Made by a program: the position numbers and the translations under genes. The notes beneath the pieces were generated by a model. It did not search any database and was not told the DNA's origin. It saw only the letters and a program-made list of their open reading frames with translations. A stretch of 63,203 nt of DNA, filler included. It is 4 parts of 4 records of this genome, joined end to end, with 100 filler letters (N's around TTAATTAATTAA, not from the genome) between each part and the next. Parts side by side here need not be neighbours in the genome. Positions count along the whole stretch, not along the records: positions 38,002 to 59,659 come from SRR20825010_3568; 3 more parts are not named here. One strand, given 5' to 3'. Numbering within the stretch: the stretch's first letter is position 1; each line of letters starts with the position of its first letter. Positions 11,180 to 57,487 of the stretch are shown here, in pieces.

Positions 11180-11183
11180 CCGG

Positions 11184-38943: not shown

Positions 38944-39525
38944 ATGCAAATAGAAACGCCCCCCACCGAAAAACGCTACGACCGCCCCGAGGGCGAACGG
39001 CGTGGCCTGATCATCGTGAACACCGGCGATGGCAAAGGCAAAAGTACCGCAGCATTTGGCTTGGCCTTGCGTGCATTTGGCCGCACCCATGTACACGGCA
39101 AACTCGTGAAAATTTACCAGTTCATGAAAGTGCCCAGCGCGCGTTTTGGTGAACACCGGTCATTCGAGCAACTGGGTTTGTCCATCGAAGGGCTGGGTGA
39201 TGGCTTTAGCTGGAAAAGCAAAGACATCGAACATTCCGCGAAATTGGCCTGCGATGGTTGGGCCAAGGCCCGTGACACTATTTTGGGCGGCGAACATTTC
39301 ATGGTGGTGCTGGATGAACTGACCTACGGCTTGATCTACGGCTGGATCCCATTGGAGGAAGTGCTGCAAACCTTGCGCGACCGACCCAAGGACGTGCATG
39401 TGGTCATTACCGGGCGTCGTTGCCCGCAGGAAGTGATCGACATGGCCGACACGGTGACTGAAATGGCCATGGTCAAGCACGCCTTCAAGGCGGGCATCCC
39501 AGCCCAGCGTGGCATCGAAGATTAA
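38944..39525 (+). CDS. cobO: Cob(I)alamin adenosyltransferase CobO/BtuR
   Basis: NTGDGKGKSTAAFG, VLDE, HVVITGR. Confidence 0.96.
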   Translation: MQIETPPTEKRYDRPEGERRGLIIVNTGDGKGKSTAAFGLALRAFGRTHVHGKLVKIYQFMKVPSARFGEHRSFEQLGLSIEGLGDGFSWKSKDIEHSAKLACDGWAKARDTILGGEHFMVVLDELTYGLIYGWIPLEEVLQTLRDRPKDVHVVITGRRCPQEVIDMADTVTEMAMVKHAFKAGIPAQRGIED

Positions 39526-39536
39526 ACACAACGCAC

Positions 39537-40259: not shown

Positions 40260-40261
40260 CC

Positions 40262-41221: not shown

Positions 41222-42210
41222 ACACACGCATACATGGCGGTACCGATGAACATGGGCCAGTGCCCTTTGATTTTTCCAGCAACGCCAATGCCGTGGGGCC
41301 TTGCCCTGTGGTGTTGAACGCAGTTCAGCAGGCTGACGCACTGCGTTACCCCGACCCGAATTACACGGCCTTGCGCACCGCACTGGCCGACTTTCATCAA
41401 GTGGACGAATCCAGAATTGTGGTGGCAGGCAGCGCCAGTGAATTCATTCAACGCCTGACCACCTGCCAGTGGCGCAAGGGTTGCAATTCTTACTGGGTGC
41501 CGCAACACGCGTATGGCGATTATGCGCATGCCGCGCAGGTGTGGGACATGGAACTGGTTGACGACGTAAGCCAGGCAGGTTTGGTGTGGTTGTGCAACCC
41601 TTCAAGCCCCTTGGGGCAGGCTGAATCGGCCGAGCTACTGAAGATTGTCGAGGATCATCCCGATGTGGTTGCTGTGCTTGATTGCGCCTATGAACCCTTG
41701 TGCCTTGATGAACAGGCCCGCGCAACCGTGCAACAGCGGGATCACCTTTGGCAATTGTGGTCGCCCAACAAGGCACTGGGAATGACCGGTGTTCGGGGCG
41801 CCTACGCCATTGCACCCGTGGGCGAAAGCCGTGCGGTGTGCGCCCTCAATAGCCTGGCACCTTCCTGGCTGATCGGCACGCACGGGCAAGCCATGTTGCA
41901 CGCCTGGACCTTGCCGGAAACACAAGGCTGGCTGGCCGAAAGCCGCAACGTGCTGGCGCAATGGAAACGGGATCTGCTGGATTGCCTTCAGCAGCAGGGC
42001 TGGGAAACCATGCCCAGCATTGCCTCGTTTGTGTGCGCCAAAGCGCCTCGTGAAATTGATGAAATGCACTTGCGCACGCACGGCATCAAGCTGCGCGATG
42101 CATCCTCGTTCGGTTTGCCCGGTTGGTGGCGCTTGTGCGCGCAAGGGCCGCAGGCCATGGCGGCACTTTCAAATGCGCTTGAACTTCATGCACGGCAGGA
42201 CCAGGCATGA
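41218..42210 (+). CDS. cobD: Threonine-phosphate decarboxylase-like PLP enzyme
   Basis: HGG, DFSSNAN, RYPDP, LCNPSSPLG, SPNKALGMTGVRG; position in the cob operon. Confidence 0.8.
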   Translation: MNTRIHGGTDEHGPVPFDFSSNANAVGPCPVVLNAVQQADALRYPDPNYTALRTALADFHQVDESRIVVAGSASEFIQRLTTCQWRKGCNSYWVPQHAYGDYAHAAQVWDMELVDDVSQAGLVWLCNPSSPLGQAESAELLKIVEDHPDVVAVLDCAYEPLCLDEQARATVQQRDHLWQLWSPNKALGMTGVRGAYAIAPVGESRAVCALNSLAPSWLIGTHGQAMLHAWTLPETQGWLAESRNVLAQWKRDLLDCLQQQGWETMPSIASFVCAKAPREIDEMHLRTHGIKLRDASSFGLPGWWRLCAQGPQAMAALSNALELHARQDQA

Positions 42211-43670
42211 CAGCTGTGTGTGTCATGGTATTGGGCACCAGCAGTGGCGCTGGCAAAAGCTGGGTGACCACGGCACTGTGCCGCCATTACGCACGAATGG
42301 GTTTGAAGGTGGCACCTTTCAAGGCACAAAACATGAGCAACAACGCTCGTGTGGTGGCGGGCTTGCGTGGTGATGAAGGCGAAATTGGTTCGGCCCAGTA
42401 TTTCCAGGCGTTGGCCGCGTGTTGCGAACCCCATGTGAACATGAACCCGGTGTTGCTAAAACCTGAAGCCGACACCAAAAGCCAGGTGGTGGTGCTGGGG
42501 CAAGTGGACCGCGCACTGAGCAAAACCCCGTGGCGGGAGCGCAGCGCCCAGGTGTGGCCGCACATCATGGCAGCGCTGGACGCACTGCGAGCCGACCACG
42601 ATGTGGTCGTGATTGAAGGCGCTGGTTCGCCCGCAGAAATCAACCTGCATGCCAGCGACATTGTGAACATGCGCGTGGCCGTGCATGCACAGGCACGTTG
42701 CCTGCTGGTTGCCGACATTGACCGTGGCGGAGCCTTTGCCCACCTGTACGGTACATGGGCATTGTTGCCCACCGAAGAGCGTGCCTTGATCCATGGTTTT
42801 GTGTTGAACAAATTTCGGGGTGATTCGGCGTTGCTGGCCCCCGCGCCCGAACAGTTGCAGCAGTTGACCGGTGTGCCCACAGTGGCCACGTTGCCCATGT
42901 GGTTTCAGCATGGTTTGCCGGAAGAAGACGGGGTATTCGACGATAGCAGCCATTCCACTGGCTGCGTGCACACCACCATTTCGGTGCTGGCTTTTCCGCG
43001 CATCAGCAATCTGGATGAATTTCAACCCTTGAAAAACATGCCCGGTGTGCGTTTGGTGTGGGCCCGCACACCTGCCGATTGTGCGGGGGCGGACTGGATC
43101 ATTCTGCCCGGTTCCAAACACACCACAGCTGACCTGGCCTGGCTGCGTGAACAGGGGTTGGACCAAACCGTGGCATCCCATGCCGAGCAAGGCAAGCCCG
43201 TGCTGGGCATTTGTGGTGGCTTGCAAATGCTGGGCGAAGCGCTGGTGGATGCGCACGGTATTGATGGCAATGCGCCGGGGTTGGGGCTTTTGCCTTTGGT
43301 GACCTGCTTTGAACCCGACAAAACAGTGCGCCGCGCCACACTGCTTTTTGGCGCAGTCCAGGGGCCATGGGCTGCGTTGGCGCAACAACGGGTAAACGGT
43401 TATGAAATTCACCATGGGCGCACAGTGCAACACACCGCGCTTGCGCAAACTGGCCAGCTTGCCCTTGAAGTGCTGCCCGGTTTGGGTTGGCAAAATACGG
43501 CAGGCAATGTGCTGGGTGTGTATGTGCATGGCCTGTTTGAAGACCCTTCAGTATTGACCGCATTGTTTGGCGCACAAGCCCCCACGCTGGAAAGCGTGTT
43601 CAACGGGTTGGCCGATTTTCTGGAACAGCATGTTCAACCGGGCGTGTTGAACGCACTTATCGAACCCTAA
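42207..43670 (+). CDS. cobQ: Cobyric acid synthase
   Basis: GTSSGAGKS, PFKAQNMSNN, IEGAGSPAEINL, GICGGLQMLG, YVHGLF. Confidence 0.97.
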   Translation: MTAVCVMVLGTSSGAGKSWVTTALCRHYARMGLKVAPFKAQNMSNNARVVAGLRGDEGEIGSAQYFQALAACCEPHVNMNPVLLKPEADTKSQVVVLGQVDRALSKTPWRERSAQVWPHIMAALDALRADHDVVVIEGAGSPAEINLHASDIVNMRVAVHAQARCLLVADIDRGGAFAHLYGTWALLPTEERALIHGFVLNKFRGDSALLAPAPEQLQQLTGVPTVATLPMWFQHGLPEEDGVFDDSSHSTGCVHTTISVLAFPRISNLDEFQPLKNMPGVRLVWARTPADCAGADWIILPGSKHTTADLAWLREQGLDQTVASHAEQGKPVLGICGGLQMLGEALVDAHGIDGNAPGLGLLPLVTCFEPDKTVRRATLLFGAVQGPWAALAQQRVNGYEIHHGRTVQHTALAQTGQLALEVLPGLGWQNTAGNVLGVYVHGLFEDPSVLTALFGAQAPTLESVFNGLADFLEQHVQPGVLNALIEP

Positions 43671-43691
43671 TTCTGCAGGTACTCAGCAACC

Positions 43692-44744
43692 ATGCCATTT
43701 GATTTTCCTCTTGTTCGCAACCCCTGCAGTGCTGTGTTGCAAGCACGGCTGCAAACCCTGCTTGACAACAAAACCAAGCCGCTCGGTTCACTGGGTCGGC
43801 TTGAAACGCTGGCTGTTCAAATTGGCATGGCCTTGGGTACTGAAAGCCCGGTTCTGAAACAGCCGCAATTGCTGGTGTTTGCAGGTGATCATGGTTTGGC
43901 GCAGCGCGGGGTGTCCGCATACCCCAGCGACGTGACCTGGCAAATGGTGGAAAACTTTTTGACCGGTGGTGCTGCCGTCAGCGTACTGGCGCGCCAACAT
44001 GGCCTGAATTTGGGTGTGGTCGATTGTGGCGTGCGCCACGATTTCGCGTCCCGCCCCAGGCTTCACCTGTGCAAGGTGGCCCATGGCACAGCCGACAGTT
44101 TTGAAGGCCCGGCCATGTCGATTCAGCAATGTGAGCAGGCAATGCAAAACGGCGTTGAACTGTTGCGTGGCTTGCCCGGCAATGTGGTGTTGCTGGGGGA
44201 AATGGGCATTGGCAATTCATCGGCCGCAGCCCTGTTGATGGCTCGGTTCACAGGGCATGGCATTGCTGAATGCACCGGCGCAGGCACAGGTTTGAATGCC
44301 CTTGCCGTTGAACGCAAGGCAGGAATTTTGCAGCAGGTGTTGAATCAACATGCCAATGCACACACACCGCTTGAAATACTTGCCGCCATGGGCGGGTTTG
44401 AAATTGCAACCATGGTGGGTGCGGTGTTGCAGGCCGCCAGCGAACGCCGCGTGGTGGTGGTCGATGGGTTTATTGCCACGGCAGCAGTGCTGGTGGCACA
44501 TGCCCTGTGCCCCGATGTGTTGCCGTATTGTGTTTTTGCGCATCAATCGGGCGAGCAAGGCCACAGTAAAATGCTGAAGTATTTGAAAGCGCAGCCCTTG
44601 CTTGACCTTGGTTTGCGTTTGGGGGAAGGCTCTGGTGCAGCCTTGGCCTGGCCGCTGTTGGTGTCGGCTTGTTGCATATTGCGCGACATGGCCAGCTTCG
44701 ATTCAGCCAGCGTGTCGCGCGCAGACGATTCAACACAGGCTTAA
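43692..44744 (+). CDS. cobT: Nicotinate-nucleotide--DMB phosphoribosyltransferase
   Basis: KTKPLGSLGRLE, GEMGIGN, RLGEGSGA. Confidence 0.97.
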   Translation: MPFDFPLVRNPCSAVLQARLQTLLDNKTKPLGSLGRLETLAVQIGMALGTESPVLKQPQLLVFAGDHGLAQRGVSAYPSDVTWQMVENFLTGGAAVSVLARQHGLNLGVVDCGVRHDFASRPRLHLCKVAHGTADSFEGPAMSIQQCEQAMQNGVELLRGLPGNVVLLGEMGIGNSSAAALLMARFTGHGIAECTGAGTGLNALAVERKAGILQQVLNQHANAHTPLEILAAMGGFEIATMVGAVLQAASERRVVVVDGFIATAAVLVAHALCPDVLPYCVFAHQSGEQGHSKMLKYLKAQPLLDLGLRLGEGSGAALAWPLLVSACCILRDMASFDSASVSRADDSTQA

Positions 44745-44750
44745 TTTTCC

Positions 44751-45584
44751 ATGCTTCAACTGCTTGCCCAATTCATTCGCCACTACCTGCTTGCCGTGCA
44801 GTTTTTTACACGTATACCGGTTACCGGAAAATTGGCCGCGTGGGTGGGCTTCTCGCCCGCCATGTTGCGTGCCAGTGCAGCACATTTTCCTGGTGTGGGT
44901 TGGCTGGTGGGTGTTGCCAGCGCGGCAGTGTTGTGGGGCTTGGTGTGGGCCTTGCCTGAAGTGCCCGCTGCAAGCTGGGTTGCCGCCGTGTTGTGTACTG
45001 TGTTTAGTGCGATGCTGACTGGTGCGTTTCATGAAGACGGCCTTGCTGACACGGCCGATGGTTTGGGCGGAAGCATGAACCGCGAACGCGCGCTCGACAT
45101 CATGAAAGATTCCCGCGTGGGTACTTATGGTGCACTGGCGCTGGTGCTGATTGTGTTGCTTAAAATCAGCCTGCTGACCATGTTGTTGCAAGTTGCAGCG
45201 TTGCCTGTTGCTGTGGCGGCAGTGTTCGGCGCGCATGTGGTGTCGCGTTTCTTGCCCTTGTGGATCATTCGCAGCTTGCCGCATGTGGGCGACACACTGC
45301 AATCCAAATCCAAACCACTGGCCGATCAAATTGGTAACGGCAGTTTGTTGGCAGCGGCCGTGTGGGCTGCATTGGCATTTGGCCTGCTGTATGTGCTTGA
45401 ACCTGGTATGCCATGGTGGGCAGGTACCTTGGGCGCCGTATTGGCACTGGGTTATATGTGGCGCTTGCTTCAACGCAGGCTGGCTGGTTTTACCGGCGAT
45501 GGTTTGGGCGCTACACAGCAACTGTGCGAGGTGGCTTTTTACCTGGGCTTGTTGTTGGCTTGGCCGTTGGCTGCTGTGTCATGA
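44751..45584 (+). CDS. cobS: Adenosylcobinamide-GDP ribazoletransferase
   Basis: QFFTRIP, TGAFHEDGLADTADG, IMKDSRVG, GFTGDGLGA. Confidence 0.96.
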   Translation: MLQLLAQFIRHYLLAVQFFTRIPVTGKLAAWVGFSPAMLRASAAHFPGVGWLVGVASAAVLWGLVWALPEVPAASWVAAVLCTVFSAMLTGAFHEDGLADTADGLGGSMNRERALDIMKDSRVGTYGALALVLIVLLKISLLTMLLQVAALPVAVAAVFGAHVVSRFLPLWIIRSLPHVGDTLQSKSKPLADQIGNGSLLAAAVWAALAFGLLYVLEPGMPWWAGTLGAVLALGYMWRLLQRRLAGFTGDGLGATQQLCEVAFYLGLLLAWPLAAVS

Positions 45585-46135
45585 AACTGTGGTTGATTCG
45601 CCATGCGCCTGTGCTGTTGCCCGCAGGTATTTGCTATGGCGCAAGCGATGTATTGGCCGATGATGCGGCCAGCTTAAACGCGGCCCGGCAAGCAGCAGAA
45701 CAATTGCCGCTCGGCTTGCCTGTGCGTGTTTCAGGCCTGCAGCGCGCGCAACAACTTGCAAACCATTTGGCGGCGCTGCGGCCCGATCTTCCCGCCGCAA
45801 TTGTAGATACCCGCTTAAATGAAATGAACTTTGGTTGCTGGGAAATGCAGCCTTGGGATGCTGTGCCGCAAGCTGCGTTCGACGCTTGGCTGGCCGCCTT
45901 TGATCACCACTGTTTTGGTGGCGTTGAAAGCACGCATAGGGTGTTGCAGCGCGTGGGGAAAGCATTGCAGAACATGCAAAGCAATGAATTGTGGATTACG
46001 CACGCAGGCGTTGTTCGCGCGGTGCAATGGATTGTTGCGAACGGTGTGGTGCCAGTGCAGCAGGCCGCGAATTGGCCTGCAACGGCGGTGGAGCCGGGTG
46101 GCTTGTGTAGTGTTGAAATTCCAGAACAGGGTTGA
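45581..46135 (+). CDS. cobC: Histidine phosphatase, alpha-ribazole phosphatase-like
   Basis: LWLIRH, ICYGASD, EMNFGCWE, ITHAGV; ATGA overlap with cobS. Confidence 0.85.
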   Translation: MKLWLIRHAPVLLPAGICYGASDVLADDAASLNAARQAAEQLPLGLPVRVSGLQRAQQLANHLAALRPDLPAAIVDTRLNEMNFGCWEMQPWDAVPQAAFDAWLAAFDHHCFGGVESTHRVLQRVGKALQNMQSNELWITHAGVVRAVQWIVANGVVPVQQAANWPATAVEPGGLCSVEIPEQG

Positions 46136-48034
46136 TCAGTTTTTCCAACGCCCCTGCGCTTCAATCATCAACCCCCTTGGCCCACGCACTTCATCCTGAT
46201 TCGCATACGCCCAGTTCAAGGCCTTGCACATTTCATCAGAAAATTCGTTCTCGTTTTGTTGGTGCAATTCCATGAATTGTTTGGACGCAACCATGGCCCG
46301 AAGCTCCTCCAGCAAGCCTGGTTCATTGATGTAGCGCACTACACCATTGACGTAGTTTTCAACGGAATCGGCCACACAATATTCAGCCAGGCCCAGCGAG
46401 GCCAGAATGTCGTAGTCGCTGCGTGAATGGGGTTCTGCGCCAATCAGGCTGACCACTGGCAAACCCAGCACCATGCAATCGATGGTGGATGTGGCATTGC
46501 CAAACGGGAATGGGCTTAAGGCCAGGTGGTTTTGGTTCAACAAATTCAAATAGGCTTCGTAGCCGGTGCGGCGTGCCACCACGGCGGTTGGAAAATATTT
46601 CAGCAAGCGGCGTTCAGTGGACAAATGTCCCACCCCATATTCATTGGGGAAGAACATGAACCGCACAGGCTTGGTCGACAGCCGTTCAATTTCTTTCAGT
46701 GCAGTCACAAAACTCAAATTGATTTTCATGACATTGCAGGGCACGGCAATCGATACAAGGTCGTTACTCAACACAGCGGGCGGTGGCAGTTTCAAGTCCT
46801 GATGCGCTTCGGCCACGTTGCCTATTTCGCTTTCCAGAATCAGCATGTTCTCGTTCACCACCCCTTGGCCGCCGAACACGCGGCTGGTCACAAAGGCCAA
46901 ATCCATTTCCGTGCTGTGGCTGGTGGCTGGGTGGCCAAAGCTCATGGTTTGCAAGGGTGCCCAGCGCAGGTTGGCGAGCGATATGCCCCACGAGCGCATG
47001 CCCACGCTCATGAACCACGCAATGTCGGGTGTGCATTGGTTTAGCAGTGGTTGCAGGTTCATTTCATCGTCGGGCACTTCAATAAATTCATCAAACAGGC
47101 TGATGGATTGTTCGTCCACATCGGCTTTCATCGACACCATTACCAGGTAATAATCGCGCCTCAACCGCTTGATCATTGGGGCGTACCAGCGGTACATGGC
47201 ATGCACCGATTTGAATGTTTCCGCGATCACGGCCATCACCGGTTTGTTGTCCACGTTGCCCGCATGTTTTATGCTGCCCACCGGCTTGGCTTGAATGCCC
47301 TTGGCCTTGTGCACGCGCTTGAACCAGTTGTTCAGGTGTTTTTTGATGTCGTGTTTGCGGGTCGATGTGCTGTAGCTGCACAGCATCCAGATATTCGAAA
47401 TCAATGCGCGGTATTGGTCCAGCGGGCGCAGTGCTTCGTAGGGGTTGTACTCTTCCAGCAAAAAAGTGCGTCCGGCATCGCCAGTCAGTGTCAGGGGCAA
47501 ACGGTCCAGCAACAAACCGATGGCCAGCAGCGCGGCTGTTTCAGAGTTTTCCAGTGTCAGTTCAACCAGGTCGCTTGCTTCCAGATCGCCCACACCGGCC
47601 AGCAACACGGCGCGCACCATGGCAGGGTTGTCGCTCAGGTGTTTGGTTTTTTTGTCGCGTGCTTTTTGCAGCAGCATTTGCAAGGTGGCCCTGTTACCGC
47701 CGTAACCAGACACTTCAAACACATAGCTCATGAAGCGTTTTTGTTTGGTCAGCACCAGCACGCTGTTTAAGCTCAGGGTGTGTTTCAGGTCGGTCAACAC
47801 ATTCACATACAGCGCTGCAAACCGGGTACACAATTCCGTGGTGCCCTGAATGTTCAGCTGCATCAAACTGGCATAGGGCTTGTTCTGGCAATCGTTGACC
47901 AACACGGCCAGTTGGTTGATGGTTTTTTCCGGGTCTTGCCGCTGCAAATACGCACCGTTTTCGATGGTCTGTAACTTGGTGTCAATTTCATTGAACAATG
48001 GTTGCAATTGTTCTTCAAGGTTGGGTGTGGTCAT
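46136..48034 (-). CDS. HMW1C/NGT-like (GT41) cytoplasmic protein glycosyltransferase
   Basis: WMLCSY..KHDIKKHLN, KPVMAV, HAMYR, SVGM, RWAPLQ..GHPATSHS, MKIN, PFPFGN..ID, GAEPH, in the same order as in HMW1C/ApNGT; ATG at 48034 with GAGAG RBS. Confidence 0.88.
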   Translation of the reverse strand: MTTPNLEEQLQPLFNEIDTKLQTIENGAYLQRQDPEKTINQLAVLVNDCQNKPYASLMQLNIQGTTELCTRFAALYVNVLTDLKHTLSLNSVLVLTKQKRFMSYVFEVSGYGGNRATLQMLLQKARDKKTKHLSDNPAMVRAVLLAGVGDLEASDLVELTLENSETAALLAIGLLLDRLPLTLTGDAGRTFLLEEYNPYEALRPLDQYRALISNIWMLCSYSTSTRKHDIKKHLNNWFKRVHKAKGIQAKPVGSIKHAGNVDNKPVMAVIAETFKSVHAMYRWYAPMIKRLRRDYYLVMVSMKADVDEQSISLFDEFIEVPDDEMNLQPLLNQCTPDIAWFMSVGMRSWGISLANLRWAPLQTMSFGHPATSHSTEMDLAFVTSRVFGGQGVVNENMLILESEIGNVAEAHQDLKLPPPAVLSNDLVSIAVPCNVMKINLSFVTALKEIERLSTKPVRFMFFPNEYGVGHLSTERRLLKYFPTAVVARRTGYEAYLNLLNQNHLALSPFPFGNATSTIDCMVLGLPVVSLIGAEPHSRSDYDILASLGLAEYCVADSVENYVNGVVRYINEPGLLEELRAMVASKQFMELHQQNENEFSDEMCKALNWAYANQDEVRGPRGLMIEAQGRWKN

Positions 48035-48053
48035 GGTCTGAAAACTCTCAAAC

Positions 48054-49193
48054 TTAAAGTTGAACAGTGCGCCCGGTGGCAGAAGCCTGCGCAATGGCCT
48101 GGCTTAGGGCCAGCCCTTCGGCGGCAACGCCCGTGGACAGTGTGTAGGTATTCAGTTTTTCATCGCGCATGGCTTGCGCAATGTCGGCGTAGTAATTTGC
48201 AAATGCTTCAATGAAACCGGAAGGGTGGCCTGCCTTGAAGCGGTTGTAGCGGGGCTGCGCGGTGATGGAGCTGTCGGTGGAGATACGATCCAGCAGCATC
48301 CGGTTTCCAGCCTCGTTTGCAGCCTCGATTAGTTCCGGGCTTTCCTGGTGCCATTGCAAACTACCTTTGGTGCCAAACACGCGAATGCGCAAACCATTGC
48401 GGTAACCCAACACGGCTTTGCCATACCAGGCGTTGACCATCAGGTTGTTGCTGTACTGAATCACGGCGTCCACTTCATCGATCAGGCCGGGTGCAACGTT
48501 GGTAATTGCGCGTTGCCAGGCATTCACGGCTTGTGGCGTGTTGCCGCATACAAAATTCACCAGGCTGTGCAGGTGTACAAACAGGTCGAGCGACACGCAG
48601 CTGATGTCGCCATCTTCAAGCCGCCAGGCCTGAATTGCCTTGGTTTTGTTTTGATTGGTCAGCCGCATGTAGGAATCTTGCGGCATTTCAACCATCACCT
48701 TGAACACATGGCCAATGGCACCACTTTCCACGCGGCGCTTCATTTCGCGCACGGCGGGGTAGCCTGTGTAATTGAAAATTGAAAACACCTGGGTGTTGTC
48801 GGGTTCAATGCGGGCCAGCAGTTCTTTGCATTCCTGCACATTGGCCAGCAGGGGTTTGTCGGAAATAACCCGCAAGTTGTGATCGAGTGCCAGGTGGATG
48901 TACTGCGCATGCGACTTGATCGGCGTGGCGATCACCACGGCATCCACTTCATCGGCCACTGCGTCAATCAGTGCTTCCGCGCTGGGGTAAAGCTTGTGCG
49001 CGGGCACATTGTATTGGCGGCCCGATTCAGCATTGAATTCTGCGTTGCGGCTAAAGCAGCCCGCAACCAGGTCAAATTCATTGTCCATTTTCATGGCAAT
49101 TTCATGCACGCGGCCCACGGCTGAATTTACACCGCCGCCTATCATGGCGACCTTGATGGGTTTGCTGATGGCTTTGGGTGTGTTCATGTTCAA
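48054..49193 (-). CDS. Gfo/Idh/MocA-family oxidoreductase
   Basis: VAMIGGG, VVIATP, SDKP, FNYTGYP, AGHPSGFIEAFAN. Confidence 0.9.
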   Translation of the reverse strand: MNMNTPKAISKPIKVAMIGGGVNSAVGRVHEIAMKMDNEFDLVAGCFSRNAEFNAESGRQYNVPAHKLYPSAEALIDAVADEVDAVVIATPIKSHAQYIHLALDHNLRVISDKPLLANVQECKELLARIEPDNTQVFSIFNYTGYPAVREMKRRVESGAIGHVFKVMVEMPQDSYMRLTNQNKTKAIQAWRLEDGDISCVSLDLFVHLHSLVNFVCGNTPQAVNAWQRAITNVAPGLIDEVDAVIQYSNNLMVNAWYGKAVLGYRNGLRIRVFGTKGSLQWHQESPELIEAANEAGNRMLLDRISTDSSITAQPRYNRFKAGHPSGFIEAFANYYADIAQAMRDEKLNTYTLSTGVAAEGLALSQAIAQASATGRTVQL

Positions 49194-49211
49194 TGTCCTT
49201 TGCGTGGGGCT

Positions 49212-50357
49212 TTAACCATTGAAGGTGTAAAGCCTGCGCTGTATGGCGTGGCTGGCCAGTGTTTGAAGCTCGCTTGCGTTGGCGCAGCGCGCGAACAGCA
49301 GCGCCATTCTGCCCACCGGGCTGGGCGCAATGAAATCGCCTGTGGCTGCAATGGGCACCCAACGCTCCATGTGCACTGGGTACTTGAAATGCAAATGTTG
49401 CAGCAAACCTTCGTGTGGCAGTGTCAGCGTGTGGCGCAAAATAAAATTCTGCTTCAATGCGCCGGGGGCGGTGCGCTGGCCCAGAAAGCCCTTGGTGTAA
49501 CTGGCCACATAGGGAAAGCCCGTTGAAAGTTCTATCAGTTGGCTGTACAAATCACCGGGGCAGCGGCGGGTAATTTCCACCAGCCAGAATTGATCGCCTT
49601 TCAGCAAAAACTGGGTGTGTACCAAGCCGTCGCAAAGGCGCAGGTTTTGTGCCAAGTGTTCAATTTCACGGCGAATGCGGGTGTGTATCTCGGCCGGAAA
49701 GTTGATGGCAACGTGGCTGGTGTCCACCACAAAACGGTTGGCCGATCCGTGTTCAATCACCATGAAGTCTTGTACCACGCGGCCATTGGCCACAAAGGCT
49801 GAATGGCTGTACAACTGGCCCTCCACGTATTCTTCCACCAAACAATCGCCACTTTTCGATTCGGTTTTGGCTGTCGCAATGGCGCGTGCAAGTTGTGTGG
49901 TTTCGCCTGCTTGCACCACGGTGATGCCGCGACCGCTGTAGGCGTCCACTGGTTTTACAATCACGGCGCAGGTCGGGGTTTCTTCATTGCTGAATACACG
50001 CGGCACCGATAAACCCTCGCGCAGCGCGTAGCTGCGAAACTTCTGTTTGTGGTTGATGGTCTCAGTAGCCTCCAGGCGGTCAATGCCGGGGAAGTGCAGG
50101 GTTTCAGATACCTCCGCGCAGGAGTAATACGAGCGGTCGTTACAACCGGGTACCAGGTATTCAATGCCAATCCGTGTGCACAAATCGGCCAGTGCCGCAG
50201 GGTCGGAATAATCCAGTTGCTGATAACCGGGTGTGGCCTTGGCCAAAAAGTCGTTGGGCTTGCCACCTGCAAACAGAACCATGTGCCCGGCGTTGCGCAG
50301 GTTGTTCAGGATGGGTCCTGATGAGAAGTTGGTGTCAACCAGCAGCACTTTAGCCAC
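49212..50357 (-). CDS. ATP-grasp ligase
   Basis: HKQKFR, VIVKPVDAYSGRGI, VEEYVEG, HTQF, VEITRRCPGD. Confidence 0.85.
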   Translation of the reverse strand: MAKVLLVDTNFSSGPILNNLRNAGHMVLFAGGKPNDFLAKATPGYQQLDYSDPAALADLCTRIGIEYLVPGCNDRSYYSCAEVSETLHFPGIDRLEATETINHKQKFRSYALREGLSVPRVFSNEETPTCAVIVKPVDAYSGRGITVVQAGETTQLARAIATAKTESKSGDCLVEEYVEGQLYSHSAFVANGRVVQDFMVIEHGSANRFVVDTSHVAINFPAEIHTRIRREIEHLAQNLRLCDGLVHTQFLLKGDQFWLVEITRRCPGDLYSQLIELSTGFPYVASYTKGFLGQRTAPGALKQNFILRHTLTLPHEGLLQHLHFKYPVHMERWVPIAATGDFIAPSPVGRMALLFARCANASELQTLASHAIQRRLYTFNG

Positions 50358-51468
50358 GGCTGGCCTCGTCGATAATCACGCAAATGCGGGCCACGTCTTC
50401 CAGCGAAAGGTCTGGGTAAATGGGCAGGCACAATACTTGTTCAGCGGCTTTGTGCGCATTGGGCAAACGGCGTGGTGCGGCCGAGGGCAGTCCACGGTAC
50501 ATCGGCATGCTGCTGATCAGCGGGAAGAAATAACGGCGTCCATTCACGCCATGTTCTTGAAGCCGCGCATACAGCGCATCGCGTGAAATGGGGTAGTGGC
50601 TATTCACAAAAATCGGGAAGTAAGCACCGTTCCACTCCACGTTTTCAGGTACGGCCATTTGTTGAATGCCGGGCACGTTGATCAGCAATTCGCGGTACAG
50701 GGCTTGTATGCGGTGGCGTTTTTCAATGGCCTGGTCGACGTACTTCAATTGCAACAGGCCGAATGCGGCGTTCAGTTCGCTCATTTTGCCGTTGATGCCA
50801 GGGGCCATCACGGTGACCTCATTGGCAAAGCCAAAGTTTTTCAGGTAATCAATACGCTGTTTTGTTTTTTCATCTTTGCAAACAATGGCACCGCCTTCAA
50901 AGGTGTTGAATACCTTGGTGGCATGCAGGCTAAGCACCGACAAATCACCCGCATTCAAAATGCTCTCGCCGTGTTGTTTCACGCCAAAGGCATGCGCTGC
51001 ATCGTAAATCACCTTCAAGCCGTACACATCGGCAATGCGCTGAATTTCATCGGTGTTGGCGGGTAGGCCATAGCAGTGCACCGGCAGAATTGCGCTGGTT
51101 TGTGGGGTTATGGCTTCCTCAATGCGGCGGGGGTCGAGGTTCAGGGTCACCGGGTCGACATCGACAAAAACGGGTTGCAAGTCGTTCCACAGCAGGGAAT
51201 GGCTGGTGCACACAAATGAATAGGGCGTGGTGATCACCTCGCCTTGAATGCGCAGGGCTTTCAGCGCGGTCATCAGGGCGATGGTGCCGTTGCAAAACAG
51301 GGAAAGGAAAGGCACGCCGAGGTATTCACACAGGGCTTTTTCAAGCTGTTGGTGATAAGGCCCGTTGTTGGTCAGGGTTTTGCTGTCCCAAATCTGTTCC
51401 AGATAGGGAATGAACTCCGCAAGCGGCGGCAGCGCAGGCTGCGTCACAAAAATTTTCCGATCGTCCAT
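50350..51468 (-). CDS. DegT/DnrJ/EryC1/StrS sugar aminotransferase, VioA-like
   Basis: IFVTQPALPPLAEF, TNNGP, CNGTIAL, YDAAHAFG, SLHATKVFNTFEGG. Confidence 0.93.
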   Translation of the reverse strand: MDDRKIFVTQPALPPLAEFIPYLEQIWDSKTLTNNGPYHQQLEKALCEYLGVPFLSLFCNGTIALMTALKALRIQGEVITTPYSFVCTSHSLLWNDLQPVFVDVDPVTLNLDPRRIEEAITPQTSAILPVHCYGLPANTDEIQRIADVYGLKVIYDAAHAFGVKQHGESILNAGDLSVLSLHATKVFNTFEGGAIVCKDEKTKQRIDYLKNFGFANEVTVMAPGINGKMSELNAAFGLLQLKYVDQAIEKRHRIQALYRELLINVPGIQQMAVPENVEWNGAYFPIFVNSHYPISRDALYARLQEHGVNGRRYFFPLISSMPMYRGLPSAAPRRLPNAHKAAEQVLCLPIYPDLSLEDVARICVIIDEASRG

Positions 51469-51677
51469 TCCCAAGCCTTTCTGTTTGATTTTCTTCATTA
51501 TGTGGGCAAGTGCTTGTGATCATTTGTTAAATATCAGGCCTCTTTCCCCTCCAGAAAAATGTTTTCCCCCTTTCAGGCTTGCTATAGTGGCGCATTGAAA
51601 ACGCGCCAACAATGGCCTGTTCCGTTGTGTTTTTGGTGTATTTCGTTCATTTATTCGTCATTTACCAGGAATTTGCC

Positions 51678-52523
51678 ATGTTTGCTGCCGGCAACGGTGT
51701 GGGTTGGTTTGAAGCTGTCATTTTGGGGCTCATTCAGGGGCTGACCGAATTTTTACCCATTTCTTCAAGTGCACACCTTCGCATCCTTGGGCCCATGTTG
51801 CCCTCGGGGCTTGATCCCGGCGCTGCTTTCACGGCCATTACCCAATTGGGCACCGAACTGGCGGTGCTGGTGTATTTCCGGCACGACATTGCCCGAATAT
51901 TCCTGGCCTGGTGTGGTTCGTTCAAGCGCAGTGCGCCCATGGATCCCGATGCCCGAATGGGTTGGCTGGTGATTGTGGGCACGCTGCCCATCGGGGTTTT
52001 GGGCCTGTTGTTTCAAGACATGATTGAAACCTACCTGCGCAATTTGTACCTGACCGCCATCATGCTGATTGTGTTTGGCCTCATCCTCGGTTTTGCCGAC
52101 AAGGCGGGCAAGCGCCAAACCGAACTGCGCGACATGACCTGGCGCGACGGCATTGTGTTTGGTTTTGCGCAAGCCCTGGCTTTGATTCCCGGTGTCAGCC
52201 GTTCAGGCGGTACCATCACGGCGGGCTTGCTGATGGGTTACACCCGCGAGGCCGCGGCGCGTTATTCATTCCTGCTGGCGGTGCCTGCGGTGTTTGCCTC
52301 GGGCTTTTACCAGCTGTACAAAAGCTGGGGCGTGGCGGGCCCGGTCAGCCCGGCCAACACAGCCTTGGCTACATTCATCGCATTCTTTGTGGGCTATGCC
52401 GTTATTGTGTGGTTCTTGAAAATTGTCAGCACACGTGGCTACGGTTTGTTTGTGGTGTACCGGGTTGTGTTGGGCGTGGTGGTGTTGGCGCTGTTGGCAG
52501 CCGGGGTGTTGCAGCCCATTTAA
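51678..52523 (+). CDS. uppP: Undecaprenyl-diphosphate phosphatase
   Basis: [34 protein letters not shown]. Confidence 0.96.
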
Positions 52524-54674: not shown

Positions 54675-56123
54675 GTGAAACTTGTTCAAGTATTCACGAC
54701 AGGACTTTCGTTGCTGGCCTTAGCGGCATTGGGTGCCTGTTCGTCCGAAGATGTGCCTGGCAATGGCACGGCAGCTGTGTCACCCAGCTCAAGCAACGTG
54801 CTTAGCAGTGAATCACTGATGCAAGCCATGGGCAGTGAAACCCCCTTGGGGCTGGGTTGCGGTTGGGTTGCTACTTCTGATCCAGACAAAGCCAACATCG
54901 CGTTTCCCGACAGTGAAGCGAAATACTGGGTGGCCGCCGCACCCGTATCGCCACAAACCCGCCTGCGTATTGACGGGCGCTATCCCGATGCGCGTTATTT
55001 CTCGTATAACGTTTACGATGTGGCCCTGCGACCTACCGATGCAATTGCTGATTTTGAATTGAACCCGGCAGGTCGTGGTGGAAATCCCTTCCTGCGCAAA
55101 GGCGCCAAGCCGGGTGGACAGTACACCGCCTACCTGGAATATGGTGTATCGCCCACACAAAATTCGGAAGTACCCAGAAAACAGAATACGTTCTACACCG
55201 GCGAAATTGGTCTTGGTCCGCTGGGAGTGCCCAATGGCCTCGCGCTTTTCATTTACCGGGTGTATGTGTCGAATGTAGGTGAATTCATGGACGGAGGTGT
55301 GGGCTTGCCCACGTTGACGCTTGAGACCTCCGATGGCAGCCGTGAATTGGGCACCCTCCCCAACTGTGCTGAACCGGCCCTGCCCAATGGTGGGGGCGCA
55401 CTGCCTGTGTTGGGCTTGAATGAACGGTTGTTGGGGCTTGACTACCCCAATCAACTGGCGCTGCCGTTTCCAACTGCCACCAACCCGCCCAGCACCGCGA
55501 AATTTTATAGCTTGGGCGACACGGCACTGCGAATTGTGGGCAATGTGACCGGACAAGACACCTCCGCCGTGGGTGAGCGTGTTGATTCGGGTTCTGGTGG
55601 GTTTCTGAGCAATGTGCACAATGCCTACACCAGCACCGCATTTGACCGCAGTGGTGGCAGCATCGCCATGGTTCGGGCCAAAGCACCCACCTATCGTGGG
55701 CAGCCCGGCGTTGAATTCAAGGAAGAACAACTGCGCTATTGGTCACTGTGTGCCAATGAATTTGCGACGCAGCGTTACACTGACTGTGCAGCCGACTACC
55801 AGGTGCCGCTGGATGATTCCGGGTATTTCACCGTTGTCATTTCCGACCCCGCAGACAGGCCCGCCAACGCGACTACAGAAAACGGTTTCGTATGGCTTCC
55901 TTGGGGCCCCTATCCAGATCAGGTTTTGTTGTACCGCCACATGCTGCACAACCCGGATTTTGCTGAGGCAATACAGAATGTCGAGAAGGGGGTTGCACTG
56001 GCTGATGCGATGAAAGATTTCGCGCCTGTCGGCATTTATTGCTCTCCAAACGTTTTTACACAAAGTAACCGCAGTGGTGAGGTGTTCACTCTGTGCGAAC
56101 AAGATCAAAACACCAATCGATAA
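54675..56123 (+). CDS. Uncharacterised lipoprotein
   Basis: AGGAG RBS, GTG start, lipobox LGAC; NIAFPD, YPDARYFSY, RYWSLC, FTVVIS motifs. Confidence 0.82.
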   Translation: MKLVQVFTTGLSLLALAALGACSSEDVPGNGTAAVSPSSSNVLSSESLMQAMGSETPLGLGCGWVATSDPDKANIAFPDSEAKYWVAAAPVSPQTRLRIDGRYPDARYFSYNVYDVALRPTDAIADFELNPAGRGGNPFLRKGAKPGGQYTAYLEYGVSPTQNSEVPRKQNTFYTGEIGLGPLGVPNGLALFIYRVYVSNVGEFMDGGVGLPTLTLETSDGSRELGTLPNCAEPALPNGGGALPVLGLNERLLGLDYPNQLALPFPTATNPPSTAKFYSLGDTALRIVGNVTGQDTSAVGERVDSGSGGFLSNVHNAYTSTAFDRSGGSIAMVRAKAPTYRGQPGVEFKEEQLRYWSLCANEFATQRYTDCAADYQVPLDDSGYFTVVISDPADRPANATTENGFVWLPWGPYPDQVLLYRHMLHNPDFAEAIQNVEKGVALADAMKDFAPVGIYCSPNVFTQSNRSGEVFTLCEQDQNTNR

Positions 56124-56149
56124 CCACTCATTCTTGAGGAGACTACGAA

Positions 56150-57487
56150 ATGGCAGTGCAAAAGTTAAAACACGGTTTGCTGGCAGCAGCAATTATTTTG
56201 GGAAGTGGCGCAGCGCTGGCCAATGACTTGTCCGAGTTGGGCAAAAGCCTGACACCGATCGGGGCTGAGAAGAAAGGCAATGCGGCGGGTACCATTCCGG
56301 AATGGACTGGCGGCTTGGTAACCCCGCCCAAAGGTTTTGACCCGGCCAAAGGCTACCTGAATCCGTTCGCAGACGAAAAACCTTTGTTCACCATCTCGGC
56401 TGCCAACATGGAGCAATACAAAGCCAACCTGACCCCCGGCCAGATGGAATTGATGAAGCGATACCCCACGTACAAAATGAACGTGTACCCAACCCATCGC
56501 ACAGCGGGCTATCGCCAGTCTGTTTATGATCATGCCAAGGCTGAAGCCCCGAATGTGAAGTTGGTTGAGAACGGCAACGGTGTCACGGGCATTAAAAAAT
56601 CAAACGTGCCTTTCCCTGTGCCGAAAAGTGGCATCGAGGTCATCTGGAACCACAACTTCCGCGACCTGGGTGGGGCGTTTACGCGTTACTCCGCCGATTT
56701 TCCTGTTCAAACAGACGGGTCGTTTACCGTGGGCAAACGGATGGAAACGGTGTCGCTGGCTTCCTACATGGACAATCCCGAACCCAACCGTATTCTGTAC
56801 TTCATGAACCAGATCACCGCGCCCGCCAACGCAGCGGGTGAGGTGGCCTTGGTGCACGAACCTATTAATCAGGTTGAGGAACCCCGTTTGGCCTGGCAGT
56901 ACAACCCCGGCCAGCGCCGCGTTATTCGTGCGCCCGAACTGGCCTATGATTCCCCAGGTATTGGTGCAGATGGCCTGCGAACCAACGATGATCTGAACGG
57001 TTTCAACGGTTCGCCAGATCGTTACGAGTGGAAGCTGGTTGGCAAAAAAGAAATGTTCGTGCCTTACAACAACTACAAGCTGGCTGATCAAACCCTGAAG
57101 TACAGCAGCATCATTCAGAAAAGCCACATCAACCCTGACATGGTGCGTTATGAATTGCACCGCGTGTGGGTTGTGGAAGCCACATTGAAACCGGGCAAGC
57201 GCCACATTTATGCCAAGCGCGTGTTCTACATCGATGAAGATTCATGGGGCGTGTTGCATGCTGACCAATACGACAGCCGTAATAGCCTGTGGCGTGTGCG
57301 TGAAGTGTTTGGCACACAGGCATACCAGGCTCCGGCATTTGTGTCTGCGGGTGAGGTAATTTACGACTTGCAGTCGCGCCGCTACCTGGTGGGCGGTTTG
57401 ACCAACGAAGAAAAGTTTGCCGAGTTTGGCAAGAAGTACACACCTGCAGACTTCTCTACGGCAGCCTTGCGCCGCATGGGTCGTTAA
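56150..57487 (+). CDS. DUF1329-domain periplasmic protein
   Basis: LTPIGAEKKGN..IPEWTGG, AWQYNPGQRRV, KEMFVPYN, RYELHRVWVVEATLK, YIDEDSW. Confidence 0.93.
   Translation: MAVQKLKHGLLAAAIILGSGAALANDLSELGKSLTPIGAEKKGNAAGTIPEWTGGLVTPPKGFDPAKGYLNPFADEKPLFTISAANMEQYKANLTPGQMELMKRYPTYKMNVYPTHRTAGYRQSVYDHAKAEAPNVKLVENGNGVTGIKKSNVPFPVPKSGIEVIWNHNFRDLGGAFTRYSADFPVQTDGSFTVGKRMETVSLASYMDNPEPNRILYFMNQITAPANAAGEVALVHEPINQVEEPRLAWQYNPGQRRVIRAPELAYDSPGIGADGLRTNDDLNGFNGSPDRYEWKLVGKKEMFVPYNNYKLADQTLKYSSIIQKSHINPDMVRYELHRVWVVEATLKPGKRHIYAKRVFYIDEDSWGVLHADQYDSRNSLWRVREVFGTQAYQAPAFVSAGEVIYDLQSRRYLVGGLTNEEKFAEFGKKYTPADFSTAALRRMGR

Follow-up and report, generated by a model that had tools for sequence, protein, structure and literature searches.

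A four-gene operon between cobC and uppP

The DNA analysed here is a stretch of 63,203 nucleotides, called the window below, in which four tightly packed open reading frames (ORFs) on the minus strand (46136-51498, from the ORF listing and the sequence) encode a DegT-type aminotransferase, an ATP-grasp ligase, a Gfo/Idh/MocA oxidoreductase and a glycosyltransferase of the HMW1C/NGT fold in family GT41 (Table 1). The cassette is a real, conserved operon. Its four families, its packing, the N-glycosyltransferase (NGT) fold and conserved core of the transferase, the altered donor and sequon residues and the recurrence of the gene set are directly established; its donor, acceptor and linkage we infer. 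The initial annotation, made from the sequence alone, had described the same four families in one operon flanked by cobC and uppP, which the ORFs, Pfam and NCBIfam bear out, with spacings of -8, 24 and 19 nt. The ATP-grasp gene, which starts with GTG, shares 8 nt with the end of the DegT gene (GTGGCTAA), and the N-terminal MxKVLLVD of its product is kept in 24 homologues; the ATG of the Gfo gene follows an AAGGA motif 24 nt past the ATP-grasp stop, and the transferase begins 19 nt past the Gfo stop. The upstream end of the operon had been placed at 51468, which is a second in-frame ATG of the DegT gene (372 aa), whereas the first ATG gives 51498; because an AAGG-like motif lies upstream of the second ATG, either start is possible. 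At the downstream end, the TGA of cobC (46133-46135) abuts the stop codon of the transferase (46136-46138), leaving zero intergenic bases between these convergent genes. A 19-residue hydrophobic segment is absent from all four proteins (maximum Kyte-Doolittle value at most 1.6), and they are therefore all predicted to be soluble.

In a Pfam scan of 54 ORFs of the window, 7 of which match no family, cobalamin, purine, tRNA-synthetase and TonB-receptor genes were found among others, and no adhesin, autotransporter, TpsA/B, flagellin, Wzx/Wzy or second glycosyltransferase, in agreement with what had been noted from the sequence. The same scan returned no rmlA or rmlB, hexapeptide transferase or acyl carrier protein (ACP), and neither a polysaccharide ABC exporter nor a priming phosphoglycosyl transferase. 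We set aside the idea of a horizontally transferred island because the cassette, with a GC content of 0.539, does not stand out from equal-sized pieces of the window (0.556 +/- 0.032). A functional tie to the cobalamin genes was likewise set aside, since these adjoin the cassette in only some of the related loci (L001, L003-L005). A promoter consensus scan of positions 45300-52000 gave 0 promoter-like sites, and the 11 terminator-like sites in that interval, where 11.1 are expected, are uninformative. Furthermore, a repeat search of positions 45900-51800 gave short repeats at chance level and none of the flanking kind that a mobile element leaves, and searches of the whole window with Rfam at the gathering threshold and with ARAGORN gave nothing, including no cobalamin riboswitch.

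Table 1. Positions and composition of the cassette, its neighbours in the window and the related loci referred to in the text.
Source	Feature	Position	Strand	Length	Details
Window	DegT/DnrJ/EryC1 pyridoxal phosphate (PLP) aminotransferase	50350-51498	minus	382 aa from first ATG	Pfam PF01041
Window	ATP-grasp carboxylate-amine ligase	49212-50357	minus	381 aa	GTG start; L-amino-acid-ligase/PurT-like
Window	Gfo/Idh/MocA NAD(P)-dependent sugar or cyclitol oxidoreductase	48054-49187	minus	377 aa	three Pfam domains
Window	HMW1C/NGT-fold (GT41) glycosyltransferase	46136-48034	minus	632 aa	NCBIfam NGTferase, PDB matches
Window	cobC	45413-46135	plus		convergent with transferase gene
Window	uppP	51612-52523	plus		divergent from DegT gene
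L061, Pseudomonadales metagenome-assembled genome	flagellin operon				flgL-fliC-fliC-flaG-fliD-fliS-104aa-DegT-NGT-Methyltransf_24-ATPgrasp-FkbM-Gfo
L061	rejected ORF	7711-9279	minus		antisense to true DegT gene
L032, L035, L041, Alteromonadales/Cellvibrionales	flagellar loci				flgH-I-J-K-L, sulfotransferase (not found in L041), DegT, NGT-like, FkbM, VioB-family acyltransferase, acyl-AMP ligase, Gfo, 99-aa protein
L032	protein after Gfo	16152-16445		99 aa	no Pfam match
L041	protein after Gfo	16701-17000		99 aa	no Pfam match
L065, Idiomarina	flagellar locus				Pseudomonadota
L045, L047, one a Kuenenia	flagellar loci				Planctomycetota
L037, Gemmatimonadaceae	flagellar locus				Gemmatimonadota; two NGT-like genes
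L028	RTX locus				1325-aa RTX protein, then NGT-like gene, then ABC, HlyD, TolC
L042	RTX locus				1001-aa FG-GAP/RTX/cadherin protein directly upstream of DegT and NGT-like gene
L038, L039, L049, L054, L056, L058-L060, Kordiimonadales and allies	large conserved cluster of type I secretion system (T1SS) type	~1000-20000			ABC exporter, HlyD, DUF6212, GT2, DegT, NGT-like, VioB-family acyltransferase or WbqC, several sulfotransferases
L071, Rhizobium sp. WSM1274 plasmid pWSM1274_4	module with GT2	4052-12767			SAM-methyltransferase, GT2, SAM-methyltransferase, fatty acid desaturase, hypothetical, ATP-grasp, Gfo, DegT
L029	classical TPR-OGT	14674-16917	minus	747 aa	Glyco_transf_41, 346 bits
L022	short transferase	3729-5117		463 aa	Limnobacter-clade metagenome-assembled genome
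L002, L006, L009	inserts between transferase and cobC	~12000-17400			AAA ATPase (AAA_14/DUF4143) and 1350-aa Pfam-less protein
Window	cobalamin lower-ligand/salvage operon	38944-46138	plus		cobO, BluB-like nitroreductase, cbiB, cobD-like aminotransferase, cobQ, cobT, cobS, cobC
Window	ORF pair (clusters c5, c6)	54675-57487			482-aa ORF without Pfam/NCBIfam match, then DUF1329/LolA-like protein
Window	AAA_33/Zeta-toxin-like P-loop kinase ORF	33083-33652	minus	189 aa	

The transferase and the three tailoring enzymes

The closest solved relatives of the transferase in phmmer searches of the PDB are ApNGT (3q3e, E 1e-52) and AaNGT (8p0q, E 7e-47). These two were also the best Foldseek matches of its AlphaFold model (pLDDT 91.5), with TM 0.80-0.85 over ~620 columns (for 8j30_A of ApNGT, 0.82/0.85 over 619 columns at 25% identity), while SPY/OGT reached only ~0.5. 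As modelled, the protein is an HMW1C-type N-terminal all-alpha domain joined to a GT-B part, with no TPR. On the NCBIfam model NGTferase (NF049992, UDP-glucose:protein N-beta-glucosyltransferase) it scores 219.7 bits (E 8e-65), under the equivalog cut-off of 1000, and 14 of its relatives score 172-310 bits on the same model. Of the 47 proteins retrieved by a word-indexed search, those with names all come from Limnobacter/Burkholderiales, at 44-100% identity (82% for P0018 of Limnobacter thiooxidans, a cultured species with the cassette), and the next match stands at 33%. An exhaustive HMMER search returned 411 cluster representatives at E <= 1e-30, a number that rises to 4468 at E <= 0.001. 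The fold family is large, yet by these searches the window transferase sits in a tight Limnobacter clade; the source organism is a Limnobacter. An alignment-based search gave no longer homologues, such as fused forms, at E <= 1e-10, which is weak evidence against fusions; NGT-like proteins of 1120-1736 aa (P0060, P0127, P0108) are listed in the representative search. A tblastn search of plasmids matched 92 records, mostly from E. coli and Salmonella, at 26-31% identity. The plasmid NGT/EtpC-like genes H11-H25 from the latter two mostly carry the label "cobalt ABC transporter permease," which is likely a propagated misannotation.

We mapped the functional residues by hand from HMMER alignments, with the roles assigned to AaNGT (PMC10507012), and counted their conservation over 73 transferase rows, from the window and the related loci, the L022 row being shortened. 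The AaNGT residues R177, H276, R280, G369-H370, K440, Y500 and D524 are kept as R178, H278, R282, G367-H368, K437, Y495 and D519. Among these, H278, R282, G367 and H368 are invariant (73/73 rows), as is D519 (72/72, L022 having no residue there), while K437 is kept in 72 of the 73 rows (R in L022) and Y495 in 68 of 72, with F or L in four. The peptide-binding R177 equivalent, R178, is kept in 22 of the 23 Limnobacter-clade rows. Judged by this core, the transferase should be active. The pair of residues that reads the sequon is changed. In AaNGT, H214 and D215 bind, together with R177, the Thr/Ser at +2/+3 of N-X-S/T, and the D215A variant is inactive (PMC10507012), whereas in the window protein H214 is replaced by a one-residue gap and D215 by N214. 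Asparagine stands at this position in all 23 Limnobacter-clade rows, and elsewhere the position is variable (P in 16, N in 13 and D in 7 rows, among others). The transferase thus probably does not read N-X-S/T.

Seven donor-pocket positions also differ from AaNGT (S277 to A279, T437 to N434, Q468 to N464, H494 to R489, S495 to T490, T519 to A514 and N520 to T515), although A279 in the related loci is imposed by the H-A-M pattern with which they were retrieved. Position 434 is N in 20 Limnobacter-clade rows, that is, in all but L018, L019 and L022, which have other cassettes and hold H or S. Seventeen of the 20 rows carry, or are taken to carry, the Gfo/ATP-grasp cassette, the rest being L013, L014 and L020. 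The position is W in 16 Kordiimonas-type rows and I in 5 Halioxenophilus-type rows, and in this alignment it is clade-specific and tracks the cassette type. The preference of Y. pestis HmwC for UDP-GlcNAc has been rationalised through the equivalent residue (PMC11329713). From these changes, the donor is probably other than the plain UDP-hexose of the NGTs. Because of the equivalog score, the altered sequon reader and the altered donor pocket, we do not file the protein as an N-glucosyltransferase. As a separate observation, the short L022 transferase is without the C-terminal nucleotide-binding part and is either a pseudogene or an assembly error.

The DegT protein (PF01041, 339 bits) is best matched in NCBIfam by the model for DesI, the dTDP-4-keto-6-deoxyglucose 4-aminotransferase (301.7 bits), and then by PseC (215). 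In the PDB, DesI again comes first (2po3, E 7e-65, 223 bits), with PseC, LegC and ArnB among those that follow, the scyllo-inosose transaminase 7b0d as the second-best solved relative (E 2.5e-44, 156 bits), and the C3 aminotransferases WbpE and NtdA at 137-138 bits, against 223 for DesI. By these scores the enzyme is nearest to the C4 aminotransferases of 4-keto-6-deoxy sugar nucleotides (DesI/VioA type). The VioA-like designation of the initial annotation thus stands as regards the best match, but the score on the DesI model lies under its cut-off of 650. The translation contains SLHATK, which we take to be the motif with the PLP lysine.

The ATP-grasp protein matches ATP-grasp_4 (33.3 bits, cut-off 27) and ATP-grasp_3 (29.6, cut-off 23.2), and its AlphaFold model (pLDDT 92.4) has the three-domain ATP-grasp fold. 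The best structural matches were the L-amino acid ligase of B. licheniformis (3vot, TM 0.82-0.83) and PurT (1eyz, 0.79), with RizA (0.71) and biotin carboxylases (0.64-0.76) lower. L-amino acid ligase and PurT both form amides from a carboxylate and an amine, and we propose from the modelled similarity that the ligase would link a carboxylate to the newly introduced amino group through an amide bond. With 1719 homologues, none of them informatively named, its family is very large, and the best 120 are at least 49% identical. The Gfo protein has three domains above the Pfam cut-offs (PF01408, 55.7 bits; PF22725, 59.3; PF02894, 50.9) but reaches no NCBIfam equivalog, the best being iolG with 72.8 bits against a cut-off of 355. 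Its nearest structures are 3v5n, which is uncharacterised (E 3e-44), then 7d5m/n and 3dty; 3v5n and 3dty belong to the scyllo-inositol dehydrogenase clade (PMC5969746). We propose that this enzyme would make the keto group that DegT aminates.

Related loci within and outside Limnobacter

Seventy related loci were collected by one profile scan of genome contigs with an 18-sequence alignment and the retrieval pattern [SET]xHAM[YFH]R[WC]Y[ASG], so that one motif-defined subfamily was sampled. In these, 1021 ORFs were called and clustered, Pfam was run on 52 cluster representatives and 177 further ORFs, and selected partners were typed with NCBIfam. The layout of L061 was corrected by hand, and one ORF there was rejected, since it has no real PDB match and is a spurious antisense ORF over the true DegT gene.

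The Limnobacter clade comprises 22 of the loci. The identical four genes occur in the same order in 10 of them (L001-L009, L021), and an extended form occurs in another 6 (L010-L012, L015-L017), in the order DegT, ATP-grasp, FkbM methyltransferase, Gfo, Methyltransf_24, a fatty-acid-desaturase-like protein and the transferase; DegT was not detected in L016. Four loci (L018-L020, L022) are arranged differently, lack both this ATP-grasp and Gfo, and bring extra DegTs, WbqC, a VioB-type acyltransferase, another ATP-grasp family, or rmlA/rmlC, and the remaining two are contigs with the transferase gene and little else. Across the 16 loci that keep the linkage the transferases are 60-96% identical. 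In a quick IQ-TREE phylogeny of the transferase, the Limnobacter loci form one long-stemmed clade (SH-aLRT 100) with subclades that match the cassette types. Separately, we note that in three of these genomes an ATPase and a large protein lie between the transferase and cobC, which marks the right cassette border as an insertion hot spot.

The persistence of the linkage bears on the possibility that the transferase modifies many proteins in the cytoplasm, by N- or O-glycosylation from the common donors UDP-Glc or UDP-GlcNAc, and that the three upstream genes serve an unrelated product and merely share its transcript. ApNGT and HmwC are indeed encoded away from their many targets (PMC3983070; PMC11329713), and the three-enzyme module exists without an NGT in Rhizobium, as described below. 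However, we consider independent functions improbable, in view of the 16 linked loci in the Limnobacter clade and the recurrence of the linkage in L061, donor-pocket residues that are unlike those of both the Glc- and the GlcNAc-using enzymes and that co-vary with the cassette type, and a spacing of -8, 24 and 19 nt that argues for one translationally coupled unit.

We also considered the possibility that the sugar ends in lipopolysaccharide (LPS), capsule or another undecaprenyl-linked polymer, in which case uppP would be functionally related to the cassette. The uppP gene adjoins in divergent orientation in the window as well as in 12 of the loci (L001, L002, L004-L009, L012, L015, L019, L021), N-acylated 4-amino-6-deoxyhexoses are common in O-antigens, and the Kordiimonas-type loci hold several GT2/GT4 genes together with sulfotransferases. 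Yet three loci (L010, L011, L017) keep the cassette and lose the adjacency to uppP, the transferase has a soluble protein-glycosyltransferase fold, and the scanned ORFs of the window include no Wzx/Wzy, polysaccharide ABC exporter, priming phosphoglycosyl transferase or second glycosyltransferase. We therefore regard an envelope glycan as a very improbable destination.

In the 48 loci outside the Limnobacter clade the transferases share 26-37% identity with that of the window. In 31 of these loci the gene immediately upstream, in the same orientation, encodes a DegT protein; in 1 the DegT gene is the next one downstream, and in 2 it stands elsewhere in the locus. The other 14 loci have no DegT gene, and in 4 of them <1.3 kb of sequence precedes the transferase. 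All nine tested DegTs that are adjacent or linked to an NGT-like gene best match the DesI model, all below its cut-off. Flagellar genes flank the transferase in 8 of the 48 loci, from three phyla (Pseudomonadota, L032, L035, L041, L061 and L065; Planctomycetota, L045 and L047; Gemmatimonadota, L037), and these loci occupy at least 5 separate branches of the transferase tree, on which the label needs 7 changes. In L061 all four cassette families stand in the flagellin locus, with ATP-grasp 46% and Gfo 43% identical to those of the window; beside the cassette, on the other strand, lie rmlA (474 bits, above cut-off), which encodes glucose-1-phosphate thymidylyltransferase, and then fleQ/fleS-like regulators. 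The clusters of L032 and L035 end with a TPR protein followed by flagellin, neither of which was seen in the examined part of L041. The 99-aa proteins that follow Gfo in L032 and L041 share a GLLDS(M/L) motif, presumably that typical of phosphopantetheine carrier proteins, and L035 has an unclustered 99-aa ORF at the equivalent position; by this motif the proteins are probably carriers for the neighbouring acyl-AMP ligase.

Genes for a T1SS and/or RTX proteins flank the transferase in another 13 of the 48 loci, mainly in Kordiimonadales, where the context is an ABC exporter, HlyD, DUF6212, GT2, DegT, the NGT-like gene and sulfotransferases. Flagellin glycosylation is cytoplasmic and takes place before export (PMC7591256). 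Flagellins and RTX proteins both exit the cytoplasm in one step, so that their glycosylation must be cytoplasmic, which fits a soluble enzyme of the NGT fold. Two further observations concern loci of this kind. The large Kordiimonadales cluster also encodes two giant fusions of GT2 and GT4, and in L038, L049, L054 and L056 it is adjoined by rmlA and/or rmlD; from its content, a T1SS substrate may carry a sulfated glycan or be exported together with one. In L029 a classical TPR-type O-GlcNAc transferase (OGT) and a sulfotransferase occur in the NGT-like locus, and by family assignment both GT41 branches are thus found side by side.

Some of the flagellar loci hold a second, FlmG-like transferase, and the NGT-like enzyme there need not be protein-directed. 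In L045 and L047 this is a GT61-TPR protein. In L032 and L035 it is a feature-based lead only, in that the C-terminal half of the TPR protein is GT9-like: the L032 protein gave TPR matches only in phmmer searches of the PDB, and an Atlas feature search with its C-terminal half led to clusters in which 14-26% of the members carry Glyco_transf_9. The NGT-fold enzyme could accordingly add its amino sugar onto an existing protein-bound sugar or other glycan, with another enzyme making the protein-sugar bond, much as VioT of P. syringae acts on the rhamnose chain of flagellin (PMC3927599). HMW1C itself also forms hexose-hexose bonds (PMC3983070), a KAS III and an SDR protein beside the NGT-like gene of L062 resemble vioS/vioR (PMC3927599), and the Asp/His pair that reads the sequon is lost. 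On the other hand, no other glycosyltransferase was seen in the available sequence of L061, L065, L037 and the window operon, the full all-alpha peptide-binding domain of the NGTs is retained at high model confidence, and R178 is kept in nearly all Limnobacter-clade rows. Such capping of a glycan therefore seems unlikely to us.

The gene content of the loci points to alternative chemistries. Over 71 sources, which are not phylogenetically independent and include a few miscalled ORFs, Gfo is found in 23 (16 of them Limnobacter) and a dehydratase, rmlC or rmlD in 8, with both in none, and ATP-grasp is found in 19 and hexapeptide (VioB-family) acyltransferases in 21, with both in 1. The VioB-family genes lie in 18 related loci, namely 17 outside the Limnobacter clade and L020. 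We read this as two interchangeable solutions to each of two steps, the keto sugar being made by Gfo oxidation or RmlB dehydration, and the amine being acylated either by an ATP-grasp ligase or by the combination of VioB-type transferase, AMP-ligase and carrier. The pattern suggests that Gfo offers an alternative route to the keto sugar without a dehydratase. Precedents for Gfo and DegT in combination are WbpB/WbpE, GnnA/GnnB, NtdC/NtdA and RifL/RifK, as well as inositol dehydrogenase with inosose transaminase.

A module without an NGT was found on a Rhizobium plasmid (L071). It shares five families with the Limnobacter cassettes, with identities to their counterparts of 65% for DegT, 40% for Gfo, 33% for ATP-grasp, 39% for the methyltransferase and 33% for the desaturase, and a GT2 replaces the NGT-fold enzyme; LuxR-family, proline iminopeptidase and ABC transporter genes adjoin the cluster. 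The initial annotation had called the tailoring enzymes the transferase's own, a description that we abandon in view of this module and of an ATP-grasp family that is far wider than the transferase clade. The module also raises the question of whether the pathway makes a small molecule. Gfo and DegT would then aminate a cyclitol or free sugar (e.g. myo-inositol via scyllo-inosose), the ATP-grasp enzyme would acylate it, and the transferase would glycosylate or use the product, giving a soluble rhizopine-, mycothiol- or aminocyclitol-like osmolyte, signal or cofactor. Inositol dehydrogenase pairs with a DegT transaminase in aminocyclitol and rhizopine pathways, and the relatives of Gfo (members of the scyllo-inositol dehydrogenase clade in the PDB, iolG in NCBIfam) and the second-best solved relative of DegT agree with such a role, as do the LuxR-family and ABC-transporter genes near the Rhizobium module and the lack of a target protein gene nearby. 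We nevertheless think it an unlikely explanation. The DegT protein scores 223 bits on DesI and 156 on the inosose transaminase, the nine tested DegTs all prefer the DesI model, the same four families lie inside the L061 flagellin operon with rmlA alongside, and we know of no GT41 enzyme that acts on small molecules.

The proposed pathway and its relation to known systems

We give about an even chance to the hypothesis that the cassette serves to attach an N-acylated amino sugar, in the cytoplasm, to a protein destined for export, which is probably flagellin. In this pathway, Gfo would oxidise a hexose nucleotide or other sugar precursor to a keto sugar, which DegT would transaminate; alternatively, DegT may take dTDP-4-keto-6-deoxyglucose from an RmlB encoded elsewhere, giving a viosamine-type 4-amino sugar. 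The ATP-grasp ligase would then use ATP to join a small carboxylate (an amino acid, or formate or acetate as in PurT) to the amine, and the NGT-fold transferase would move the N-acylated amino sugar from the nucleotide onto protein in the cytoplasm, before export. The acceptor would be encoded outside the window and, by analogy with the genomic homes of the relatives, would most likely be flagellin, or else a one-step-exported protein such as an RTX/T1SS substrate. Its motif is probably not the classical N-X-S/T sequon. A polar flagellum has been described in Limnobacter thiooxidans (PMC10793337).

A cytoplasmic system that builds a tailored amino sugar for a target encoded elsewhere had already been proposed in the initial annotation, with a survey of neighbourhoods for recurring partners or flagellar genes as a way to check it. 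That survey has now supplied comparative support, with the DegT/ATP-grasp/Gfo linkage kept in Limnobacter and found again in L061, and with flagellar genes in 8 and T1SS/RTX genes in 13 of the 48 loci outside the Limnobacter clade; the donor, acceptor and linkage are still deductions.

Several observations weigh against this hypothesis. The acceptor gene is absent from the window and from all 22 Limnobacter-clade loci, and 27 of the 48 outside loci have no flagellar or T1SS/RTX neighbours, although several of these are short contigs. The nearest structures of Gfo belong to the inositol/free-sugar dehydrogenase clade and not to the nucleotide-sugar 3-dehydrogenases, and the Rhizobium module with GT2 is neither exclusive to the NGT nor in need of it. 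The DegTs of the outside loci are mostly only 25-32% identical to that of the window (exceptions are L036 with 38% and L046 with 61%), which means that the shared DegT-NGT pair holds at the level of the family and not of orthology. Likewise, the GT61-TPR protein in L045/L047 and the GT9-like lead in L032/L035 place a possible second transferase in these flagellar loci. Finally, the 70 loci represent the H-A-M motif subfamily only, and their co-occurrence counts are not phylogenetically independent.

A broader hypothesis, which we put forward tentatively and hold to be doubtful at present, is that an uncharacterised HMW1C/NGT branch glycosylates one-step-exported proteins (flagellins, and RTX proteins via the T1SS) with a bespoke amino sugar, which in Limnobacter would be made by Gfo and DegT without a 4,6-dehydratase and N-acylated by the ATP-grasp ligase.

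The window transferase resembles HMW1C, ApNGT and AaNGT in its full-length fold, its solubility and its core residues, and like ApNGT it is encoded away from an obvious target. It differs from them in its ~25% identity, in the change of D215 to N and the deletion of H214, in the seven donor-pocket changes, and in being co-operonic with amino-sugar tailoring enzymes, as no characterised member is. The classical pattern would be glucosylation or galactosylation of Asn in adhesins or autotransporters, by an enzyme encoded next to tpsAB or with autotransporter targets; no TpsA/B or autotransporter was found among the 54 scanned ORFs of the window. A review of HMW1C proteins distinguishes two categories only, TPS-adjacent genes and the rest, and the available text mentions neither flagella nor aminotransferases (PMC3983070). 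We cannot retain the earlier view that HMW1C-like enzymes are limited to Glc/Gal on Asn, since Y. pestis HmwC is an HMW1C-like O-GlcNAc transferase, with UDP-GlcNAc as donor and an O-Ser linkage (PMC11329713). The fold can thus switch both donor and linkage, and the residue at ApNGT T438, which differs in HmwC, also differs in the window protein (N434). However, HmwC, at 41% identity to ApHMW1C, keeps the substrate-binding Asp (D217), which is Asn in the much more divergent window protein; tailoring genes are not mentioned in the available parts of that paper (PMC11329713).

Parallels to the tailoring genes are found in the viosamine island and the flagellin glycosylation islands of P. syringae and P. 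aeruginosa PAK. The genes are vioA, vioB, vioM, vioS, vioR, acp and vioT, and VioT of P. syringae (1173 aa) adds modified viosamine to a rhamnose chain on flagellin (PMC3927599). By the logic that we propose for the cassette and its relatives as well, these islands combine a DegT-type 4-aminotransferase, N-acylation, O-methylation and a dedicated transferase, there for a modified 4-amino-4,6-dideoxyhexose of flagellin, and the related loci hold VioB-family acyltransferases (cluster c3, 159.2 bits against a cut-off of 160.8) and FkbM, with an AMP-ligase and a 99-aa carrier-like protein, or a KAS III and an SDR. The window cassette differs in that it uses an ATP-grasp ligase in place of VioB/ACP, adds Gfo and sits outside a flagellar locus. 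The pairing of Gfo with DegT resembles known oxidation-transamination modules, where the same two families are adjacent and an amino sugar is made without a 4,6-dehydratase, and such a route agrees with the mutual exclusion of Gfo and dehydratase/rmlC/rmlD genes over the 71 sources; yet the window DegT is nearest to C4 enzymes (DesI, PseC) and its Gfo to free-sugar/cyclitol dehydrogenases.

The closest prior description of GT41 in combination with DegT and FkbM comes from the flagellin islands of enterobacteria, where De Maayer and Cowan (2016; PMC4875605) catalogued GT41 (COG3914) transferases, FkbM methyltransferases and, for 242 of 307 strains, aminotransferases between flagellar genes. To call the system of the window undescribed, as was first done, is therefore too strong. 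The enterobacterial GT41 proteins, which we compared by description only, mostly have fused methyltransferase domains and are described as SPINDLY/OGT-like; the survey is a bioinformatic catalogue, in the available text of which ATP-grasp is not mentioned and where Gfo was not looked for (PMC4875605). FlmG and Maf are likewise soluble enzymes that glycosylate flagellin in the cytoplasm before export, with an alpha-helical protein-binding N-terminal domain and a GT-B part, but they belong to another family, with TPR, a different GT-B and nonulosonic acid donors (PMC7591256), and in some loci FlmG-like proteins co-occur with the NGT-like gene rather than replace it. In B. cenocepacia, flmQ encodes a predicted flagellin glycosyltransferase (PMC4462625). 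Our literature searches found no HMW1C-fold enzyme described in a flagellar or amino-sugar-tailoring context, and only one study that ties GT41 to flagellin islands (PMC4875605).

Some further features of the window touch on none of these questions. The longest cobC ORF overlaps cobS by 172 nt and its His_Phos_1 domain begins only at residue 59, so that the true start of cobC is probably later. The 482-aa ORF and its DUF1329/LolA-like neighbour are kept near the cassette region in many Limnobacter loci, and a kinase-like ORF of the AAA_33/Zeta-toxin type lies elsewhere in the window (Table 1).

If the broader hypothesis of such a branch is correct, GT41 would gain a new donor class, an acceptor logic without an N-X-S/T reader and a new way of acylating sugar amines, and a function would be assigned to the very large unnamed ATP-grasp family. 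It would also explain the decoration of flagellins, and possibly of RTX proteins, in many environmental bacteria. The NGT enzymes are prized tools for lipid-free protein glycosylation, and the known members accept, to our knowledge, only UDP-Glc, UDP-Gal or, in the case of HmwC, UDP-GlcNAc. The cassette is a defined and portable set of four genes in a culturable genus of non-pathogens, and a branch of the family without a sequon reader, wired to amino-sugar genes, would widen both the donor and the acceptor range of the NGTs.

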